A DNA stretch of 46,256 nucleotides from a virus (taxonomy: Duplodnaviria; Heunggongvirae; Uroviricota; Caudoviricetes), in IMG/VR virus record IMGVR_UViG_2579779052_000002. One strand, written 5' to 3'. The first letter of the stretch is position 1. Each line of letters starts with the position of its first letter. Positions 7,001 to 38,031 of the stretch are shown here, in pieces. Below the pieces are notes generated by a model. That model was not told the origin of the DNA. It worked only from the letters and a program-made list of their open reading frames with translations, and made no database searches. Both the position numbers and the translations under genes were made by a program.

Positions 7001-7556
7001 CCGTCTCCCTGACCATCCGGATGTTAAAGGGCCGGGGAGGCAGATTATCCAGAATCACCGAGGCCAGGAACTGTGAGGTGGTCTTGCCGTTAATGGTGAC
7101 GTCCTTTTCTGTCACCCAGTTACCGTTACGCTGTAACTGAATCAGCAGGCGGACGGTTGCCGGGTTACGGTCACCCTTTGAGGTGGTCTCCACCAGTGAC
7201 TGCACCCCGAAGGTAACCCGCAGGCGGTCAATGTTCGCGGACGTAATGGTGCGCGTCACCGGTTTTGCCTTCGTCACTTCCACGCCCAGTCCGGTTTCAG
7301 CTCCGGAGGACTCAAAGCCTTCCGGTGGTGTCTGCTCCTGCTCCCCGGCGCGCCAGACCGCCGTCACACCGTGTATCACGGGATTGCCGTCCGTGTCCGT
7401 CAGTGGGGTTTTGTTCACCAGAATACTCTGCAGTCCCTTCACCGGACCTTCTATCGGTCCCTCACCAATCGCATCAATCACGCTCATCATCTGCGTGGAT
7501 TTGAGATTATCCTTCGCCTCACGAGGCGTGTGTGCCTTACCGCCACCTTTTCCCAT
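4083..7556 (-). CDS. J: central tail fiber / host specificity protein J
   Basis: 1157 aa; N-terminus [22 protein letters not shown] and long collinear similarity to lambda gpJ as recalled; GGGGAAGG RBS. Confidence 0.95.
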
Positions 7557-7660
7557 ACAGCCTTCCCCTGAATAAATTAACCGCCACTTGCCATTCCGTA
7601 CAGAAGTCGGATATCCTTCGCCCGAAAAGCATGAAACACATTTCTGCCATGCTAAAGAGA

Positions 7661-7694
7661 AACCCCGGTATCAGCAGATACCGGGGTTTTCTTT
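7661..7694. terminator. bidirectional intrinsic terminator hairpin in I-J spacer
   Basis: CCCCGGTATC-loop-GATACCGGGG stem flanked by A-run upstream and T-run downstream, so a T-tract follows the stem on either strand. Confidence 0.55.
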
Positions 7695-7760
7695 CATGCC
7701 CACCGATAATCCTGTTGGTTAAAACCGGTAATGGCATAAAAATTCTGAATATCTTCACAT

Positions 7761-7789
7761 TTTCACACACTGACTGTGGCGCTTATAAT
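7761..7789 (+). promoter_or_regulatory. candidate sigma70 promoter (TTTCAC-17 nt-TATAAT)
   Basis: Perfect -10 hexamer TATAAT at 7784-7789 with weak -35 at 7761-7766; about 100 nt upstream of a plus-strand terminator. Confidence 0.3.
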
Positions 7790-7860
7790 TTCGCTGCGTT
7801 AGTGTTTTTTTGCCCGAGTAACAAAAACAACTCCTTAACATTGATCTTCATTTGTCTGTC

Positions 7861-7893
7861 CCCGCAGCTCCGCGATCACTGCGGGATTTTTTT
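7861..7893 (+). terminator. plus-strand intrinsic terminator
   Basis: CCCGCAG-loop-CTGCGGG followed by ATTTTTTT on plus strand only. Confidence 0.5.
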
Positions 7894-7898
7894 ATGTT

Positions 7899-8579
7899 TT
7901 ATCCCTGTCGCCCGATAACCACGACCGTTCCGCCCCCGCCTTCATCACGGGTGCTGATGTCCTGGGATATACGGCGGGAGCCAACCAGCATTTCCCCGTA
8001 AGGCACCGGCATCGGGTTCCCCTGGGCAATCATGTTATCCAGCGAGGAAAAGTACGTGTTCTGTCTGCCGTTATCCGTTGCGCGGTAATCCGGTGTTTTT
8101 GCCTTCGGGGCCAGCATCTGGGCCACACCGCCCAGAATCATGCTGGCTCCAAGTGAAAACAGCATCGTGGTGGCAGAAAAACCACCGGCTGCCAGGGCTG
8201 AACCCCATAACGCCATTGATGCCCCGGCAGTGAAGAAAGAGCCCACGATGGCTGCCGCCCCCAGCACAATCTGCAGTCCACCCTTTCCGGCCCCGGCCAG
8301 TCGCGGCACAATATGGATGACCGTTCCCTCACCCAGCTGTTCGTGAAGACGGGCGTACACCGCCTCCGGTGCCGTGTCATAACCGGCAATACGTATCTGG
8401 TACCAGCCTTCGTTCATCTGACGGCGAAAGCCCGGCACCTGTAACGACAGCGCCCGGATGGCTTCCGCTGCCGTGTTCACATACAGGCTGAGGCGGCGGC
8501 CAAATCGTTGTAAATCCCCGTGAAGGCAGATGCGTGCCAGTGGCGGTGACGCCAGACAGAATGCGTTCGTCGTTGCCAT
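7899..8579 (-). CDS. I: tail assembly protein I
   Basis: 226 aa; N-terminus MATTNAFCLASPPLARICLHGDLQRFGRRLSLYVNTAAEAIRALSLQVPGF matches lambda gpI as recalled. Confidence 0.9.
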   Translation of the reverse strand: MATTNAFCLASPPLARICLHGDLQRFGRRLSLYVNTAAEAIRALSLQVPGFRRQMNEGWYQIRIAGYDTAPEAVYARLHEQLGEGTVIHIVPRLAGAGKGGLQIVLGAAAIVGSFFTAGASMALWGSALAAGGFSATTMLFSLGASMILGGVAQMLAPKAKTPDYRATDNGRQNTYFSSLDNMIAQGNPMPVPYGEMLVGSRRISQDISTRDEGGGGTVVVIGRQG

Positions 8580-9929: not shown

Positions 9930-10270
9930 CAGTTCACCACCTGCTCAATCGTACAACTGAAATCACTGTACCTGGCGTTATCTGTGACGCTCCACTCCCG
10001 GCACACCACCCTCACCGTCCGGTTATGTTTCGGCGGTCGCCACAAAAAGGCACGGTAACCACCATGCCAGGATAAAAATTCATCCAGCCAGCGCCGGGTT
10101 GGTTCATCCGTCACCCGGAACACCGCCTGAAACGTCTTCAGTCTGGCATTAAGTCCCGTCGGTCGGCGCTGTTCATAACCGTCACCAAACCGAACCCTCA
10201 CCACCGACGGTTTCTCACTCACCTGCATCCCTTCACGCGGGACCAGATGCAGCGTTTTTATCTCAGCCAC
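9929..10270 (-). CDS. M: minor tail protein M
   Basis: 113 aa, MAEIKTLHLVPREGMQVSEKP..., lambda gpM-like; 8-nt overlap with H. Confidence 0.9.
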   Translation of the reverse strand: MAEIKTLHLVPREGMQVSEKPSVVRVRFGDGYEQRRPTGLNARLKTFQAVFRVTDEPTRRWLDEFLSWHGGYRAFLWRPPKHNRTVRVVCREWSVTDNARYSDFSCTIEQVVN

Positions 10271-13200
10271 TCAGCATTCCTCCGTCACGTCGCATGGACA
10301 GCATCACCGCCTGCACCCGCTGGTCAATCAGCTGCACAAGACTGCCTGCCGCCTCCGCCCCTATCTGTCCGTTAGCCCCGTCATTCTGAATGGCGATGTG
10401 GTAGACCGGGGAATACACCAGACCGGCACTGCCGTTCATACTGCCCACCGCGCGTACGCCCAGCGAGCCATCCGCCGCCCGGGTCAGGGGCATAATGGCT
10501 TCAGGTCCGGCTTCCCCCATCAGCCCGGCCCCTTTTGCAAACGCAAAGTACGTGGGCGTGTCCACAATGCTGTTGCTGTACGCACTCAGGTTTGCCGAGG
10601 TATACACGCCGCCTTTTGCATTGGCCACCGCACCGCCCAGCCAGCTACCAATACTGCCGATAAATCCTCCCGCTCCGGACATACTGTTTGCCGCCGTCTT
10701 GATCCCGTTGACAATCGCGGCATTCATAAGAACTTTTGATATTTCCTGCAGCACTGATGAGGCCCAGCTGCGCCATTCCACTTTATTTCCGTTCAGCATC
10801 TCCGTGATGTTATTCACCATCCCTGAGATACCCTCCGTCGCCAGCTGTGCTGCCTGTGAGGCGTAATCGGACGCATTATCCACCCAGTTACTGAATCCCT
10901 CCTGCAGCCCTTTCTGCCAGTCCGCACGCTGCCCATCCGATTCGGCATAAAAGGCTTCCTGCTCTTTCAGACGTTCACTCAGATACTGCGCGTTCTGTGC
11001 CAGAGCCTGTCTGTAAAAATCCTCACTGATATCCCCGGTCTGATACTGAGACTGAAGGTCCGCATCCTTCTGGCGGAAACTGTCGCGGATCTGCTGCAAC
11101 TCCCGCATGCGTTCACGGAGCCGCTCTCCCTGCCCGTACCCCAGCAGTTCCGCTTCATTTGATGCACGCGCAGCCACATTATCATTCTTCAGGGTCTCTT
11201 CCCGGGACCGCAACTGCTCCCGGATTTTTTGCTGGTCAATCAGGGCCGCATTGCGCAGCAGTTCCTGCTTCTGCATCTCCGTCAGGGTTTTCAGTTCGCC
11301 CTGCGCAGTCTGGTATTTCAGCTTCGCCAGCTCTGTATTCTGCCCCGCAAGTGCCAATTGCTCTTTCTGCTGCTTCAGCAGCCGGGAAAAACTGTCTTCC
11401 GCTTTTTCCGTCTCTGATTTTCCACCCCGGGATTTGGGTTTATTCGCCTCGTTATTGCGCCAGGCTTCCAGGGCATTACTGATATAACGTTGTCTCGCCT
11501 CCTGATACGGTTCACCCACAAAACCGAGGTCATCCGCCGCATACCCCAGTCGGACACGCTCTTTTTCTTCCCCTTTCAGTCTGGACAGGGCCAGCTCACG
11601 CTCTGTTTTTGTCAGGGCACTCTGCTGTTTATCATCCAGAGTGGCCTGTGGCAGCCGTAACGGCACATTCACCAGTCCCTGCCGCTGCTGAAGCAGTTCA
11701 TTACCCAGCCCCAGCAGACGGTTGAATTCCGTATGCTGACCGTTCATAACCAGCATGGACTGGTACACCTTATTCTGCTCTGCCGCCTGCTGACGAATTA
11801 ACGCCACACGACGGTCTTCCAGCCCGGCAAGCACATCCTGAATGGACTGCGCTTTTTCCTGCATCTGTGCCAGACGGGACTGCTCAACGGCAAGCTGCTC
11901 TGTTGCCTGAGAAAGCCCTTCCGTCACGGTCTTCACCGATGTCAGATGGTTTATCATGAATCCGTCACCGGTTGTCCAGCCAGGGTTAGCCAGAACATAC
12001 TGATATCCAGCGATTTTTTCCTGCAGGGATTTCACCCGGCTGGCCTGTTCATCAATCAGCCGGTTCTGCTCTGCCAGCGCCGCCCGTGTTCGTCCTTCAT
12101 TATCTGAGGCTTCAGGCAAAGACATTGACGGCGTTTTATGCGCGATTTCATCTATCGTCAGTGCATACTGGCGCGCTGACTCCCTGGCCTGCTCCTGATT
12201 CTGGTACAGCGTATACCATGCTGCTGCCCCCAGCATCACCAGTCCGGGTACGCCACCAACCAGTCCCAACGCACCAGTCATCAGACGTGAGCCCACCGCC
12301 GTTGTACTGTTCAGCGCATTCTGGGCTGCGGTTCTGGCAGCAATATTTCTGTTCAGGCGTTCCTGTGTGGCCGCCAGACGGGCTTCTGCAGCAATCTGCA
12401 TCTCCGTCCCGCGGGCTGCCGCCACAGCCTGCTGTGCACGGTACACGGCTGCCCTTGCCCGCGCCGTGGCAATCTGCGTCCCCCTGAGCTGTGCTTCCGC
12501 CAGTGCCACTTCATTACGTGCTGCCGTCACAAGTCCTGCCGTGGCAGACACCGCTCCGGAGGCCATATTGCCAAAGTACCGGGCAACCCCGACGGCAACC
12601 AGCGCCCCCGCGGCTGTTGCCACATTATCAATATTACCGGCAACACCGTTCAGCACGCCGGAGAGCGTTTTCGTCGCTCCGCTGGCTTCATTCGCGCCAC
12701 CCACCCAGGCCATAAAGGCGTTTTCCACCTTTGTGATCCCGTCAGAGACCGTTTCCGGCATGGCGGCATATTCATCACGCAATACCCCCAGCTGGCTGAT
12801 TAACGCAGGAACGACTTTATCCGCCGTCAGTTTGCCGTCGTCCGCCATCGCCTTAAGGTCTTTACGGGCCACGCCCATACCCGCAGCCAGTGCACGTACG
12901 ATCCGGTCTCCGCTTTCATTGACCGAATTAAATTCCTCACCGCGTAACACACCCTGTGCCAGCGCCTGGCTGAACTGGGTGATCACCGAGCCCGCCTCTG
13001 CCGTACTGGCACCGGAGATTTTCAGCCCCGTGGAAATGGCCTCCGTCACCTTCAGCACATCATCAGCACTGTAACCATATTCACGCATTGAGGCTGCCGA
13101 GCGGGCAAACAGGGCCGCATTATCTGAAAATGCCGTGCCCGTCCGCTGGCTGATATCCATCAGCACTTTCTGTGATGACGAAAATTCATCGGATGACTGC

Positions 13201-13505
13201 GACGCCTGTTTCAGTCGGGCATTCACGGAACTCCATTCATCGGCCAGAGAAATCAGGTGTCCGGTGGCAAAGGCACCTGCAAATGCCCCCGCCGTTCCGG
13301 CAGCTGAAGCGCGGATTTCCGTCAACTGGCTGTTCAGCTCAGCCAGGGCGCGTCGCTGCTCCCGGGCGACTGCGGCAGCCTGACGCCCGCCATTCTGCAG
13401 GGTCCGGTAATATTCACTGCCCATGCGGGAAGTCCGCTGGATCTCCGACTGGAATGACTGCGAATTTGCCGAAATTTTGATAATCAGTTCACGTAACGTC
13501 GCCAT
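10263..13505 (-). CDS. H: tail tape measure protein (1080 aa)
   Basis: Long coiled-coil-rich protein between G-T and M; larger than lambda gpH (853 aa as recalled). Confidence 0.9.
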   Translation of the reverse strand: MATLRELIIKISANSQSFQSEIQRTSRMGSEYYRTLQNGGRQAAAVAREQRRALAELNSQLTEIRASAAGTAGAFAGAFATGHLISLADEWSSVNARLKQASQSSDEFSSSQKVLMDISQRTGTAFSDNAALFARSAASMREYGYSADDVLKVTEAISTGLKISGASTAEAGSVITQFSQALAQGVLRGEEFNSVNESGDRIVRALAAGMGVARKDLKAMADDGKLTADKVVPALISQLGVLRDEYAAMPETVSDGITKVENAFMAWVGGANEASGATKTLSGVLNGVAGNIDNVATAAGALVAVGVARYFGNMASGAVSATAGLVTAARNEVALAEAQLRGTQIATARARAAVYRAQQAVAAARGTEMQIAAEARLAATQERLNRNIAARTAAQNALNSTTAVGSRLMTGALGLVGGVPGLVMLGAAAWYTLYQNQEQARESARQYALTIDEIAHKTPSMSLPEASDNEGRTRAALAEQNRLIDEQASRVKSLQEKIAGYQYVLANPGWTTGDGFMINHLTSVKTVTEGLSQATEQLAVEQSRLAQMQEKAQSIQDVLAGLEDRRVALIRQQAAEQNKVYQSMLVMNGQHTEFNRLLGLGNELLQQRQGLVNVPLRLPQATLDDKQQSALTKTERELALSRLKGEEKERVRLGYAADDLGFVGEPYQEARQRYISNALEAWRNNEANKPKSRGGKSETEKAEDSFSRLLKQQKEQLALAGQNTELAKLKYQTAQGELKTLTEMQKQELLRNAALIDQQKIREQLRSREETLKNDNVAARASNEAELLGYGQGERLRERMRELQQIRDSFRQKDADLQSQYQTGDISEDFYRQALAQNAQYLSERLKEQEAFYAESDGQRADWQKGLQEGFSNWVDNASDYASQAAQLATEGISGMVNNITEMLNGNKVEWRSWASSVLQEISKVLMNAAIVNGIKTAANSMSGAGGFIGSIGSWLGGAVANAKGGVYTSANLSAYSNSIVDTPTYFAFAKGAGLMGEAGPEAIMPLTRAADGSLGVRAVGSMNGSAGLVYSPVYHIAIQNDGANGQIGAEAAGSLVQLIDQRVQAVMLSMRRDGGMLSG

Positions 13506-13552: not shown

Positions 13553-14232
13553 TCATGACTGTGCTGCAAAGCTCAGCGCGTCTTCCAGCGCCGCAAACGG
13601 ATCCACCTCCGGCTTATCCTCATCCTCGCCCCAGCAGAGCATGGCGTCCTTCAGTGCAACATTCATCCCCTGTGCCCCAAAAACCGCTTTCACGATCTGT
13701 GCATTACGGATATCCCCGCGCTCATCACCCAGCGGGGATACCCTGTCGAACTCCATCCACATCATCGCCTCGCTCACACTCAGGCTGTGCCGCAGTTCGG
13801 ATAAGGTGCGCCCCAGACGGAGCGCAAGTCGCATCAGAAAGCGAATTTCCGGGCGGGCTACTTTTTTCTGGCCGACTCTGCATCAGCGATCAGTTCCAGT
13901 GCCTGACGCAGCAACCGGGCATGTACCGGACCATAGACGGCCAGCACCTGCTCACGGTCGTCCGGAGCGAACACCCGCTGCAGATCCGTATCACACAGGA
14001 CATCGCAGAACAGCGTCACATCCGCTTCCAGGTTACGGCGGGTTTTCGCCACCACCGACAGGGTATCGTCATCCTCTCCATCACCATTGAGCACTTCCTG
14101 CCACAGATACCAGGCCTCTGCCGAAGGCTCCCGCAGCACCACGCTGACATTACCCCATTCCGGCACCTTCACCGTTTTATGACGAAACCCTGACAGTCTG
14201 GCCAGCGCCAGCGTTTTCAGATCCTTTTTCAT
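13553..14232 (-). CDS. T: tail assembly chaperone G-T fusion produced by programmed -1 ribosomal frameshift
   Basis: G frame ends ...ARKK-stop at 13858; the -1 frame is open across the slippery site and continues as ...KKVARPEIRFLMRLALRLGR... to stop at 13553. Confidence 0.75.
13858..14232 (-). CDS. G: tail assembly chaperone G
   Basis: Start chosen at ATG 14232 (MKKDLKTLALARLSGF) just after V stop; acidic protein between V and H. Confidence 0.8.
   Translation of the reverse strand: MKKDLKTLALARLSGFRHKTVKVPEWGNVSVVLREPSAEAWYLWQEVLNGDGEDDDTLSVVAKTRRNLEADVTLFCDVLCDTDLQRVFAPDDREQVLAVYGPVHARLLRQALELIADAESARKK
13861..13867 (-). promoter_or_regulatory. -1 frameshift slippery heptamer A_AAA_AAG
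   Basis: Minus strand reads GCC AGA AAA AAG TAG; heptamer A AAA AAG lies immediately before the G stop codon. Confidence 0.7.
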
Positions 14233-14246
14233 GATGACCCATCCCC

Positions 14247-14963
14247 TTATCCGGCGGCTGCGCTCACTGTCACGGTGCATTCAACAGACGTCACACTCTG
14301 TGCTTTCTCTGCCGAATCGGTCACCACGCAGGTATATTTCCCCGCATCAGCGGACTGCGCACCTGGCTTACTGAAGGTGTCTGTCGTCTGCCCGTCAACC
14401 GGCTGACCATCCTTCTTCCAGGCGTATTTATACGGCGGCGTTCCCCCGTTGGCACTGACTGACATTGTCAGCAGCGCACCTGTATTCACGGTAAGTGTTT
14501 TATCCAGATTTTTCACAAACGCCAGCGGTACCACAAAGGACACCGGTTTGCCTTTCATACGCAGTGAAAACGTTGCTGCCACCACGCCGTTGGTACCGGA
14601 TGACCAGGTGTGCTGACGCACTTCCGCCAGGAACTTAAAGCCCTTACCGGACGGAAACAGCACCTTAAACGCATACAACGCGTCATTGTCATAGGCATCA
14701 CGCAGGGCGTTCTGGGCCTGATTCAGATAAAAATTACCCGACATGGAAATCTCAGACGACGCCCCCAGACCGTTGATGTTCTCCTGCTCGGTGGAGCAGA
14801 GCGTGGTCACATCAATATCCTGTTTCTGACCGGCGGTGAACTGGACTTCCTTGATGGTGCAATCCAGGCGCAGATATTCCGCCTTATCCATAGTTTCAGC
14901 AGTCGCCGGGGCAGATGAAATCATCACCTGCGTCAGCTGTGAGCGTTCATACAAAGCAGACAT
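14247..14963 (-). CDS. V: major tail protein V with C-terminal Ig-like domain
   Basis: Start chosen at ATG 14963 (MSALYERSQLTQV...) preceded by AGGAGG; C-terminal region resembles Big_2-type Ig domain (ends TVSAAAG). Confidence 0.85.
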   Translation of the reverse strand: MSALYERSQLTQVMISSAPATAETMDKAEYLRLDCTIKEVQFTAGQKQDIDVTTLCSTEQENINGLGASSEISMSGNFYLNQAQNALRDAYDNDALYAFKVLFPSGKGFKFLAEVRQHTWSSGTNGVVAATFSLRMKGKPVSFVVPLAFVKNLDKTLTVNTGALLTMSVSANGGTPPYKYAWKKDGQPVDGQTTDTFSKPGAQSADAGKYTCVVTDSAEKAQSVTSVECTVTVSAAAG

Positions 14964-16171: not shown

Positions 16172-16498
16172 TCATAACACCGTCGGACAACGCAAATCGT
16201 AAATCAGCACGGAAACAGAAAACGGCAGCTCCCCCTGAAGCAGTTCTTCCCGCTCCGCAAGATCCGGATTCCGGTACAGCATCCCGGTCAGTCGCATGGC
16301 AGCCCCCTTCATCCGGGTTAATGCCTCGCCCGGGATCAGTTCACCGTCCTCACGGATCACTTTATCCCGGCTGCCCTGAATGTAGGCCAGCAGCACGGCG
16401 GTAGCCTGACGAACCTTGTCCATCAGCATGTCATCATCCGCGTCATGGTCGACACGCAGATGTGCCTTGATCTCTTCCAGTGTCAGTAATGCCGTCAT
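16172..16498 (-). CDS. head-tail connector (gp6-like)
   Basis: 108 aa, overlaps portal stop by 4 nt; synteny. Confidence 0.6.
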   Translation of the reverse strand: MTALLTLEEIKAHLRVDHDADDDMLMDKVRQATAVLLAYIQGSRDKVIREDGELIPGEALTRMKGAAMRLTGMLYRNPDLAEREELLQGELPFSVSVLIYDLRCPTVL

Positions 16499-19080
16499 TT
16501 TCCGCCTCCTGCATCCCGCCCACGTTTTGCCGCCAGGGTCCAGGCTGATGAATGAGCTTCTCCGGGTTTATCTTCGGTCATACTGTTGCAGTGCCACAGC
16601 GAGCCCCCCCACGTCACCGTATCGCCGGGGTGGTAGGTTTCACCGGCTCTGAACACACCGCGGTAGAGCATCACCGGCAGGGAAAATGTTTTTTCCGTAC
16701 GCTGGCCACTGCTCTGCCGGACCACCACAGAGAACAACCGCTCACCCGTCATGCTGACGTCAATATCCGCCACCCCGTCAACCAGGCATTCCCATCCCCG
16801 CATCCCGTGCGTTTTTTCATACGCCCGCCAGAGTCCGCCCTGGTGTGTGGCATACGTGCCCCGGGGAAAGGATTTTTGATCGTCAATGGCGGGGAGTATT
16901 TCCAGAGCCGTGGCATCACGCCCGTCCTGCGGAGCCGGCAGGGCACTCACCGCATCCAGAACCGCCTTCTGCAGAACATCCGGATCGTAGTCACGACCAT
17001 CACGCGGAACATGAATATGGCTTACCGCCTCCTTCACCATCTGTTCAAGCATCGGACGCACATCATCCGGGGTGAGACTTTTACCGTCTGCCGGCTGCGG
17101 AATATTTGCGACCGCATCATTCACCGCCTTCTGCAGAACATCGGGATCATAGTCACGACCGTCGCGCGGAACAGGGATATGGCTTACAGCCTCCTTCACC
17201 ATCTGTTCAAGCATCGGACGCACATCATCCGGGGTGAGACTTTTACCGTCCGCCGGCTGCGGAATATTTGCGACCGCATCATTCACCGCCTTCTGCAGTA
17301 CTTCCGGATCGTAGTCACGACCATCACGCGGAACAGGGATATGGCTTACAGCCTCCTTCACCATCTGTTCAAGCATCGGACGCACATCATCCGGGGTGAG
17401 ACTTTTACCGTCCGCCGGCTGCGGAATATTTGCGACCGCATCATTCACCGCCTGCTGCAGTACATCCGGATCATAATCACGACCATCACGCGGTACCGGA
17501 ATGGCCCCCACAGCGTCATCCACCATCGCCTGCAGAACCGGACGCACCTCATCCACCGTCACATGCTTCTGTAATACCGCCGACAGGGAAGTCAGTTTCT
17601 CTTCAAACGCTTGTGCCTGCGAGGCCATCTTCCCCTCAAATGTGCGCTGTAAATCCGCCAGCACTGTGGAGAATTCTTCTCCCAGTGCACGAATAATGGA
17701 CAGTTCCCGTTCCGTCATTTTCTCAGTATCCCCCCTGAACATCGCTTTCACCGCATCATGCTCTGTTTCACTGATTGCCTTATTACCGTCAGATGCGCCG
17801 TCAGGCAGCTGTGATGAAACTGTTTTCCCGGCAGACGCGAACGGATCCTCACGGGCATCACGACGGGACAGCGCCTCCAGACTGTAGTTCTGCTGCTGAA
17901 GATACAGTGCATCACCGCCGGCCAGGGGCGGCAGGTTCTCCCGTTTACGGGCCTCATTGGGCGTGAGAAGCGTATTTTTCACCGCATCCCCCAGCGTTTT
18001 CATGCGCCGCTCACTGTCCATTCTCAGCAGCGTGGTGACATCAAATTCTGTACTCTCGTTTTCCCCCGTTTCCAGCGCCTCATCCAGTAACAGTTCAATG
18101 GACTCAATCAGCGTCTGCAGGCACTGGGAATAATACTGCTGCTCCAGCGCCTCCACGTTGTCACTGGAAGGCGGTTGTCCCACGCCAATCTTGTAGGCCG
18201 GGACACGGAACACCGAACAGACAATTTCAGCGGTCATCTTCAGTTGTTCCACCGTCTGCGCATCCACAGGTGAAAACGTCGTGGGGTTGTATTTTGCCCC
18301 GTTGCTCAGAATGGCCGTTTTCCCCGCATTTTCGCCTGTATACCCGCTGTCCCAGTTGCTCTTCAGTTTTTTCGCATTTTCTTCCGTAATACTGCCGGGG
18401 ATCTCAATCACCCCGGACGGCCTGCCGCCATTTCTGAAAAAAGACGTCGAATTTTCCTGAATATGATGCCCCTGCGTGGCCGCCAGCCCGGCGGCATACA
18501 CCGGCGGCAATCCTATAAGCGGATGAAAAAAACAGTTAAACCGGTCGTGGATCACTTCCCGGGCAGGCACCGTCACCGCCTCCGTGATCCCGCAGTTCCG
18601 GTCCGGCGTGATGCGGTAGAACACCTCGCCGTCATCCGCCACCAGAGGTTCAACCCGGCTCCAGTCCAGAATACGCAGTTCTTTGATCTGCCCCCGGGCA
18701 TTACGGATTTTCAGCACCACCGTATTGCCATGACGCAGTTTGGCGTTCAGCCACAGTTCAAAAAACTGGATGCGGTTCTGCTGGGCGTTGGGACGACGAC
18801 AGAGGCGGGCAATATCCCCCCGGCGCGTTTCCCTGCGTATCCCATGCGCATCCGTCTGCATAAGACGCAGCCGCATTTTGGCGATATCCTGGGATATCAG
18901 CGAAATACATGCAAACACCGCATGAAAGGAGAGGACGGCTTCAGGATCGGCTTTCACGCCCTGCTGCCAGGCGCCGGAAAAGGGCTCAGCCACCGCCTGA
19001 AACAGGCTGGTCCAGCCCGCCTCTCTTACGTCACGTCCTGATTTCTGGTTTTTTCGGGTTCGCCGTAAAAGGTTCCACAT
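16495..19080 (-). CDS. portal protein (HK97 family) with ~440-aa C-terminal extension containing tandem 54-aa repeats
   Basis: N-terminal ~420 aa contains portal-like motifs (RPSGVIEIPG, GENAGKTAILSNGAKYNP, EIVCSVFRVPAYKIG); C-terminal region has 4 copies of IPVPRDGRDYDPDVLQKAVNDAVANIPQPADGKSLTPDDVRPMLEQMVKEAVSH. Confidence 0.8.
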   Translation of the reverse strand: MWNLLRRTRKNQKSGRDVREAGWTSLFQAVAEPFSGAWQQGVKADPEAVLSFHAVFACISLISQDIAKMRLRLMQTDAHGIRRETRRGDIARLCRRPNAQQNRIQFFELWLNAKLRHGNTVVLKIRNARGQIKELRILDWSRVEPLVADDGEVFYRITPDRNCGITEAVTVPAREVIHDRFNCFFHPLIGLPPVYAAGLAATQGHHIQENSTSFFRNGGRPSGVIEIPGSITEENAKKLKSNWDSGYTGENAGKTAILSNGAKYNPTTFSPVDAQTVEQLKMTAEIVCSVFRVPAYKIGVGQPPSSDNVEALEQQYYSQCLQTLIESIELLLDEALETGENESTEFDVTTLLRMDSERRMKTLGDAVKNTLLTPNEARKRENLPPLAGGDALYLQQQNYSLEALSRRDAREDPFASAGKTVSSQLPDGASDGNKAISETEHDAVKAMFRGDTEKMTERELSIIRALGEEFSTVLADLQRTFEGKMASQAQAFEEKLTSLSAVLQKHVTVDEVRPVLQAMVDDAVGAIPVPRDGRDYDPDVLQQAVNDAVANIPQPADGKSLTPDDVRPMLEQMVKEAVSHIPVPRDGRDYDPEVLQKAVNDAVANIPQPADGKSLTPDDVRPMLEQMVKEAVSHIPVPRDGRDYDPDVLQKAVNDAVANIPQPADGKSLTPDDVRPMLEQMVKEAVSHIHVPRDGRDYDPDVLQKAVLDAVSALPAPQDGRDATALEILPAIDDQKSFPRGTYATHQGGLWRAYEKTHGMRGWECLVDGVADIDVSMTGERLFSVVVRQSSGQRTEKTFSLPVMLYRGVFRAGETYHPGDTVTWGGSLWHCNSMTEDKPGEAHSSAWTLAAKRGRDAGGGK
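16939..17586. repeat. 162-bp tandem direct repeat, ~4 copies, in-frame within portal gene
   Basis: Anchor AATATTTGCGACCGCATCATTCACCGCC recurs at 17101, 17263 and 17425 (period 162); flanking copies are degenerate. Confidence 0.9.
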
Positions 19081-38005: not shown

Positions 38006-38031
38006 ACAAAAAAAGCGCCTTATCGGCGCTT
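38006..38031 (-). terminator. intrinsic terminator after the 38040-38309 gene
   Basis: Minus strand AAGCGCC-GATAA-GGCGCTT followed by TTTTTTTGTTTG. Confidence 0.6.

Follow-up and report, generated by a model that had tools for sequence, protein, structure and literature searches.

The tail assembly chaperone gene in this 46,256-nt phage sequence (the window, meaning the whole stretch of DNA that was analyzed) very probably undergoes programmed -1 frameshifting by tandem tRNA-Lys slippage on the heptamer A_AAA_AAG, which would yield both the chaperone G and a 226-aa G-T fusion; we put the probability of this reading at just over 90%. A -1 frameshift of the G/G-T type was what the original prediction had proposed, and gene order, protein families, conservation, homology to HK97 gp13/gp14, and a published reporter value all support it. 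We infer that slippage at A_AAA_AAG is ribosomal rather than transcriptional and that it involves two Lys tRNAs slipping in tandem. The frameshift as such is already known, since this is textbook recoding, the HK97 homologue is annotated as frameshifted, and a reporter value of 7% exists for this very sequence.

The slip site and its two reading frames

On the minus strand, an ORF of 124 codons plus a TAG stop extends from 14232 to 13858 and has the 3' end GCC AGA AAA AAG TAG. The heptamer A_AAA_AAG lies within this end at 13867..13861 (minus strand) in the register X_XXY_YYZ, its first A being the third base of the AGA codon, with AAA as the P-site codon and AAG as the A-site codon; the TAG stop of G (13860..13858) is immediately 3' of it. 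Minus-strand reading and translation therefore bear out the earlier claim that the G ORF ends in RKK-stop with the heptamer directly before the stop codon. After a -1 slip, the first codon is GTA (13861..13859), and the frame then remains open until a TGA at 13555..13553, which translates to an extension of 102 sense codons (13553..13861) and a predicted G-T fusion of 226 aa. The translated junction, ...ARKK-VARPEIRF..., is identical to the one that had been predicted, and the -1 frame is indeed open to 13553, although over 102 codons and not the 94 originally given; that figure matches the 93-aa ATG-initiated ORF at 13834..13553. Since the nearest -1-frame stop 5' of the slip is 7 codons upstream, the T frame opens essentially at the slip site.

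Rarity of the heptamer was dropped as evidence, because AAAAAAG is overrepresented in the window (21 copies on both strands versus 6.2 expected from shuffles). Specificity comes instead from register and context: of the 21 copies, the one at 13867..13861 alone has both a long -1 extension and, upstream, a long zero-frame ORF in register (at least 124 codons). A further in-register A_AAA_AAG was observed on the plus strand at 38009-38015, where the ORF extends at least 125 codons upstream and 14 codons remain to the stop; the open -1 frame at this copy is 35 codons long, and the site is probably incidental.

Frameshifting on this sequence has been measured. A cluster of 41 frameshifted genes similar to an HK97 protein was predicted by Antonov et al. 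(2013, NAR 41:6514, PMC3711429) under the label "phage tail assembly chaperone," and two of its members, cloned between GST and MBP, gave 6% and 7% frameshifting in E. coli. The frameshift with ID 15618692, of the cluster Phage_TAC, is listed at 7% ± 0.79 (Suppl. Table S2, PMC3711429), a GST-MBP reporter value obtained in E. coli and not in the phage. An exact string match by script showed that the 75 nt of this insert are 100% identical to 13887..13813 of the window (minus strand); the cloned inserts also had flanks (18 nt upstream and 45 nt downstream), and identity to the window was verified for the listed 75 nt. The frameshift reporter suggested as a check on the prediction has thus, in effect, already been published for an identical sequence.

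Gene families, neighbors, and known systems

The product of 14232..13858 (minus strand), a G analogue and HK97 gp13 homologue, matches Pfam PF06222 (Phage_TAC_1) over its full length (E = 6e-61, positions 1-124 of 124) and PHROG 344 (tail assembly chaperone), and RefSeq names it "phage tail assembly chaperone." Its ATG is preceded by a strong Shine-Dalgarno sequence (-9.1 kcal/mol). The -1 extension, i.e., the T domain, matches PF06223 (Phage_tail_T, E = 7e-18) and PHROG 337 ("tail protein"). Both halves also match, in order, PHROG 14766, a fusion profile of 224 positions.

The gene order on the minus strand is major tail subunit (14963..14247), G (14232..13858), the T frame (13861..13553), and tape measure (13505..10263), followed by a gene for a lambda-M-like minor tail protein. 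The major tail subunit was identified by Pfam Phage_TTP_11, Phage_tail_2, and Ig_3/I-set and by its RefSeq name, "major tail subunit," while the 1080-aa tape measure protein matches Phage_HK97_TLTM (1e-90), TMP_3, and Tape_meas_lam_C. Two overlapping ORFs on the same strand thus lie between the major tail and tape measure genes. We conclude that the window is a common lambdoid prophage of E. coli with an HK97-like tail module, in which the G/T genes form the tail assembly chaperone pair.

Several features of the neighboring genes were seen along the way. The major tail subunit (14247-14963, minus strand) carries an in-frame C-terminal Ig-like domain (Pfam Ig_3, Ig_2, and I-set), and its gene is labeled "fibritin" in one phage record, a mislabel, and "Hoc-like head decoration" in another. 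Two terminator-like hairpins (15000-14986 and 15041-15025, minus strand) separate the gp17-like tail completion gene from the major tail gene, paralleling HK97, in which a "putative terminator" is annotated before the major tail gene. Farther upstream, a 162-bp tandem repeat at 16961-17554 (3.3 copies, 95% match) falls within the minus-strand ORF 19080..16495, whose 861-aa product is called "phage portal protein" in RefSeq. The C-terminal half of this protein contains 54-aa repeats (IPVPRDGRDYDP...KSLTPDDVRPMLEQMVKEAVSH), which are unusual in a portal and suggest a fused repeat-containing domain.

When the predicted fusion was compared with HK97 gp14, the two were 61% identical over 225 aa (E = 5e-101) and collinear across the junction. 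In the HK97 record (NC_002167), gp14 is given as a joined CDS (7472..8145) that overlaps gp13 and is "translated due to a -1 frameshift"; the mEp234 record carries a similar frameshift note. The two systems share PF06222 and PF06223, the -1 direction, the invariant A_AAG Lys codon at the slip, and a location flanked by the major tail gene on one side and an HK97-type tape measure gene on the other. They differ at the slip site, which in HK97 is G_GAA_AAG (CGG GAA AAG, with an imperfect XXY P-site codon) located 15 nt before the G stop, whereas in the window the canonical A_AAA_AAG abuts the stop. Based on the shared PF06222 and PF06223 domains and the collinear similarity, the G/T pair is assigned to the HK97 gp13/gp14 family.

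In HK97, moreover, gp14 is separated from the tape measure gene by the moron gp15; at this place the window has only a terminator-like hairpin. This hairpin (13544-13524, minus strand; AACCGC-TGAG-GCGGTT followed by T7) sits between the T stop (13553) and the tape measure ATG (13505), which are 47 nt apart. It was not called by the pattern scan, as stem extension consumes the T-run. Since HK97 and mEp234 have annotated putative terminators together with the moron gp15 at this position, the hairpin may be a moron-less remnant of the gp15 insertion site.

The relationship to lambda is more distant. The frameshift of lambda G/G-T was described by Levin, Hendrix, and Casjens (1993) and Xu, Hendrix, and Duda (2004, 2013, and 2014), as cited via PMC5009743. 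Shared with lambda are the strategy, the gene position, the -1 direction, the A-site AAG Lys codon, the T domain family (PF06223 by Pfam), and a K|V junction followed at the same place by an F..LA...GR motif. In contrast, the lambda heptamer is G_GGA_AAG and lies 15 nt before the stop, lambda G belongs to PF06894 (Phage_TAC_2) whereas the window G matches only PF06222, and the lambda T extension is longer (~145 aa, versus 102 codons in the window). BLASTP found no significant pairwise similarity between the window fusion and the lambda G-T fusion (E = 8.6), such that the Pfam T-domain profile PF06223 is the sole link between them. Efficiency is low in both systems, with a lambda G:GT ratio of ~30:1 (PMC5009743) versus the 7% reporter value here. 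The statement that the window reproduces the lambda strategy with a different heptamer holds, and the lambda heptamer given with it is correct, since lambda G-T could be reconstructed at G_GGA_AAG; the closest relative, however, is HK97 gp13/gp14 rather than lambda G.

Conservation of the two-frame arrangement

A scan using one genome per species recovered 51 loci from >20 genera with 44-64% protein identity. The set analyzed consisted of 52 loci, namely 49 of these 51 (two disrupted copies were excluded), the window, HK97, and PhiR49_2, spanning 44-99% identity. In all 52, the end of G carries an A_AAG Lys codon in register, and after the slip comes a -1 ORF of 94-103 codons, open from the slip site or from just upstream of it; the +1 frames are short. 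The full heptamer A_AAA_AAG is present in 36 loci, with the remainder carrying G_GAA_AAG (the HK97 type, 7 loci), A/G_GCA_AAG (7 loci), or A_GAA_AAG (2 loci). A stop codon directly abuts the site in 28 of the 36 A_AAA_AAG loci and in 9/9 of the loci with A/G_GCA_AAG or A_GAA_AAG, which look like the weakest sites of the series. Sites that encode Lys-Lys always use AAA AAG, and the terminal AAG is invariant (52/52), while neighboring synonymous positions vary freely. Slip site and two-frame layout are therefore both kept in diverged relatives.

Disrupted G frames of 153 and 46 codons, in which the arrangement has been lost, were observed in L041 (a Serratia sp. L9 prophage) and L046 ("Candidatus Symbiopectobacterium endolongispinus"), respectively; both are probably decaying prophages. 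Three in-frame G-T fusions from the protein database (P0001, P0002, and P0004), all single-contig variants in which deletions or double frame changes have occurred, were set aside as uninformative, probably reflecting sequencing or assembly indels. Two other proteins have unusual architectures. A 240-aa ENA protein (P0118) contains PF06222 and PF06223 in one frame at 33% identity and may be a natural in-frame G-T, and a 390-aa protein (P0011) in which a chaperone domain is fused to the C-terminal domain of a tape measure protein is probably a deletion remnant.

Existing records annotate a "phage tail assembly protein T" from ATG 13834, and the Met at this position is kept in nearly all relatives, as would be expected if T were a separate 93-aa protein initiated independently at that ATG and the heptamer were incidental. 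However, conservation of the T-frame protein begins at the first -1 codon (V-x-x-P-x-x-x-F-L/M-M-x-L-A-L-R-L/M-G-R-T), upstream of the annotated ATG, and the nine -1 codons between slip and ATG are conserved as protein across relatives diverged to 44-64% identity. Anti-Shine-Dalgarno pairing at ATG 13834 is weak (-3.5 kcal/mol, versus -9.1 for G and -6.6 for the tape measure gene), and one relative, L052, carries Leu in place of the annotated start Met. The T ORF thus has no convincing start of its own, and its conservation reaches back to the slip. Given, in addition, the consistent opening of the -1 ORF at the slip or just upstream of it, the 7% GST-MBP fusion obtained with the identical sequence, and the annotation of the homologous HK97 gp14 as a frameshift fusion, we regard independent initiation as the source of T as very unlikely, although some T may additionally start at the conserved Met.

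Slippage could instead occur during transcription, with RNA polymerase adding an extra A in the A6 run and thereby placing G and T in one frame. The site is homopolymeric, the GST-MBP assay cannot separate RNA-level from ribosome-level slippage, and single-contig in-frame G-T proteins such as P0004 show that the run is indel-prone at some level. According to the literature, however, productive transcriptional slippage generally needs runs of >7 A or >8 T, for which A6 is short. Moreover, 16 of the 52 loci have only 3-4 A (GCA_AAG or GAA_AAG) with the same -1 arrangement, and this retention of A_AAG fits slippage of tRNA-Lys rather than polymerase stuttering. Polymerase slippage would also favor longer uninterrupted runs, whereas AAA AAG is found in 36 loci and the final G in all 52. 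The probability of a transcriptional origin is accordingly minimal.

A third explanation is that the arrangement is a decayed or accidental frameshift, i.e., a pseudogenized single G-T gene in which no programmed recoding takes place; prophage regions do often have indels in homopolymer runs. The distribution of the module argues against this. Over 1 kb, the region matches 92 phage records, with an identity of at least 99% for several E. coli phages and of 93-99% for many Stx1/Stx2-converting phages, such as BP-4795, 2851, and YYZ-2008. Besides these 92 records, among them inducible Stx phages, 1246 of 5426 complete E. coli genomes (~23%) contain the module with its two-frame layout, and the layout recurs in relatives from >20 genera. 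An accidental indel would not be so conserved, and we give this explanation practically no weight. Taken together, the conservation of the -1 frame from its first codon, the weak Shine-Dalgarno pairing at ATG 13834, and the conserved layout argue against both independent initiation of T and an accidental indel.

Stimulatory elements, proposed mechanism, and annotation

In E. coli, A_AAA_AAG ranks with the most shift-prone heptamers, and the smallest sequence that serves as a -1 site is A_AAG (Atkins et al. 2016, PMC5009743). The identical heptamer, decoded by the single E. coli tRNA-Lys, is used by E. coli dnaX (gamma/tau), where a Shine-Dalgarno-like stimulator precedes it, a stem-loop follows it, and the frequency of shifting is ~50%; neither element was detected here, where the value is 7%. 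The outcome also differs, with the dnaX shift giving early termination and the window shift a 102-codon extension.

An upstream Shine-Dalgarno-like stimulator of the dnaX type, ~10 nt 5' of the heptamer, was not found. The best anti-Shine-Dalgarno duplex was -2.4 kcal/mol, weaker than 83% of the 16-nt windows in G, and the mean over relatives was at background. Downstream, a single-sequence fold of 13860..13780 had a z-score of -1.5, and a three-sequence alifold hinted at an extended hairpin after the slip; the RNAalifold consensus of 46 unique relatives, however, contained no pairs in this region. The strongest local hairpin, GCGCUCC-N4-GGGGCGC, starts 35 nt downstream of the slip. By explicit pair counting, its stem was 78.6% paired, compared with 76.2% in shuffles, with 4 compensatory cells. 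We rejected this hairpin as a conserved stimulator based on the absence of consensus pairs, pairing near the shuffle level, and little covariation; sequence conservation around the stem is attributable to the conserved peptide ALR(L/M)GRT. Fold, RNAalifold, and pair counts thus agree that a conserved dnaX-type stem-loop 5-9 nt 3' of the heptamer is lacking.

The modest 7% efficiency is consistent with either an unstimulated heptamer or a stop-assisted one. Since nine relatives keep no more than NGCA_AAG or AGAA_AAG together with an adjacent stop, and since neither a conserved structure nor a Shine-Dalgarno element was found, a tentative possibility is that the core of the family is a single tRNA-Lys slip on A_AAG for which the 3'-adjacent stop serves as the stimulator (a "shifty stop"). 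If so, A_AAA_AAG_TAG would be stop assisted, and its efficiency would depend on release factor 1 levels.

For tandem slippage on A_AAA_AAG, we propose the following sequence of events. A ribosome translating G would reach the heptamer with one tRNA-Lys paired to AAA (P site) and another to AAG (A site), TAG being the next codon. The majority (~93%) would terminate there and release the 124-aa chaperone. In the remainder, ~7% by the reporter value, both Lys tRNAs would slip back one base and re-pair with AAA, and GTA would become the next codon; slow decoding of the adjacent TAG as an A-site codon possibly favors this step. Slipped ribosomes would read 102 more codons to complete the 226-aa fusion, and the T domain would be translated only within it.

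In lambda, gpG and gpGT occur at ~30:1 and act as chaperones through which the major tail protein and the tape measure protein are linked (Atkins et al. 2016, PMC5009743); a balanced ratio of G and GT is needed for tail assembly, and both are absent from virions (PMC5009743). By analogy, many G and few GT molecules would coat the tape measure protein, with T recruiting the major tail subunit, and neither G nor GT would end up in the virion. The expected partners are thus the tape measure protein for G and the major tail subunit for T, an assembly role that we assign by likeness to lambda.

In NC_011601, AP012539, NC_004813, PV340570, and ON470626, T is given an ORF of its own with 93 aa (70 aa in one record), and the ribosomal-slippage join that the HK97 record carries is absent. 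All records inspected, for the module as well as for close relatives of it, list the short T and not the 226-aa fusion, an annotation gap that affects >1200 complete E. coli genomes. The analysis adds little new biology, its practical value being the annotation of T as a frameshift fusion. For the family as a whole, the slip-site variants surrounding the invariant A_AAG constitute a clean natural series that is usable for studies of the minimal -1 site.
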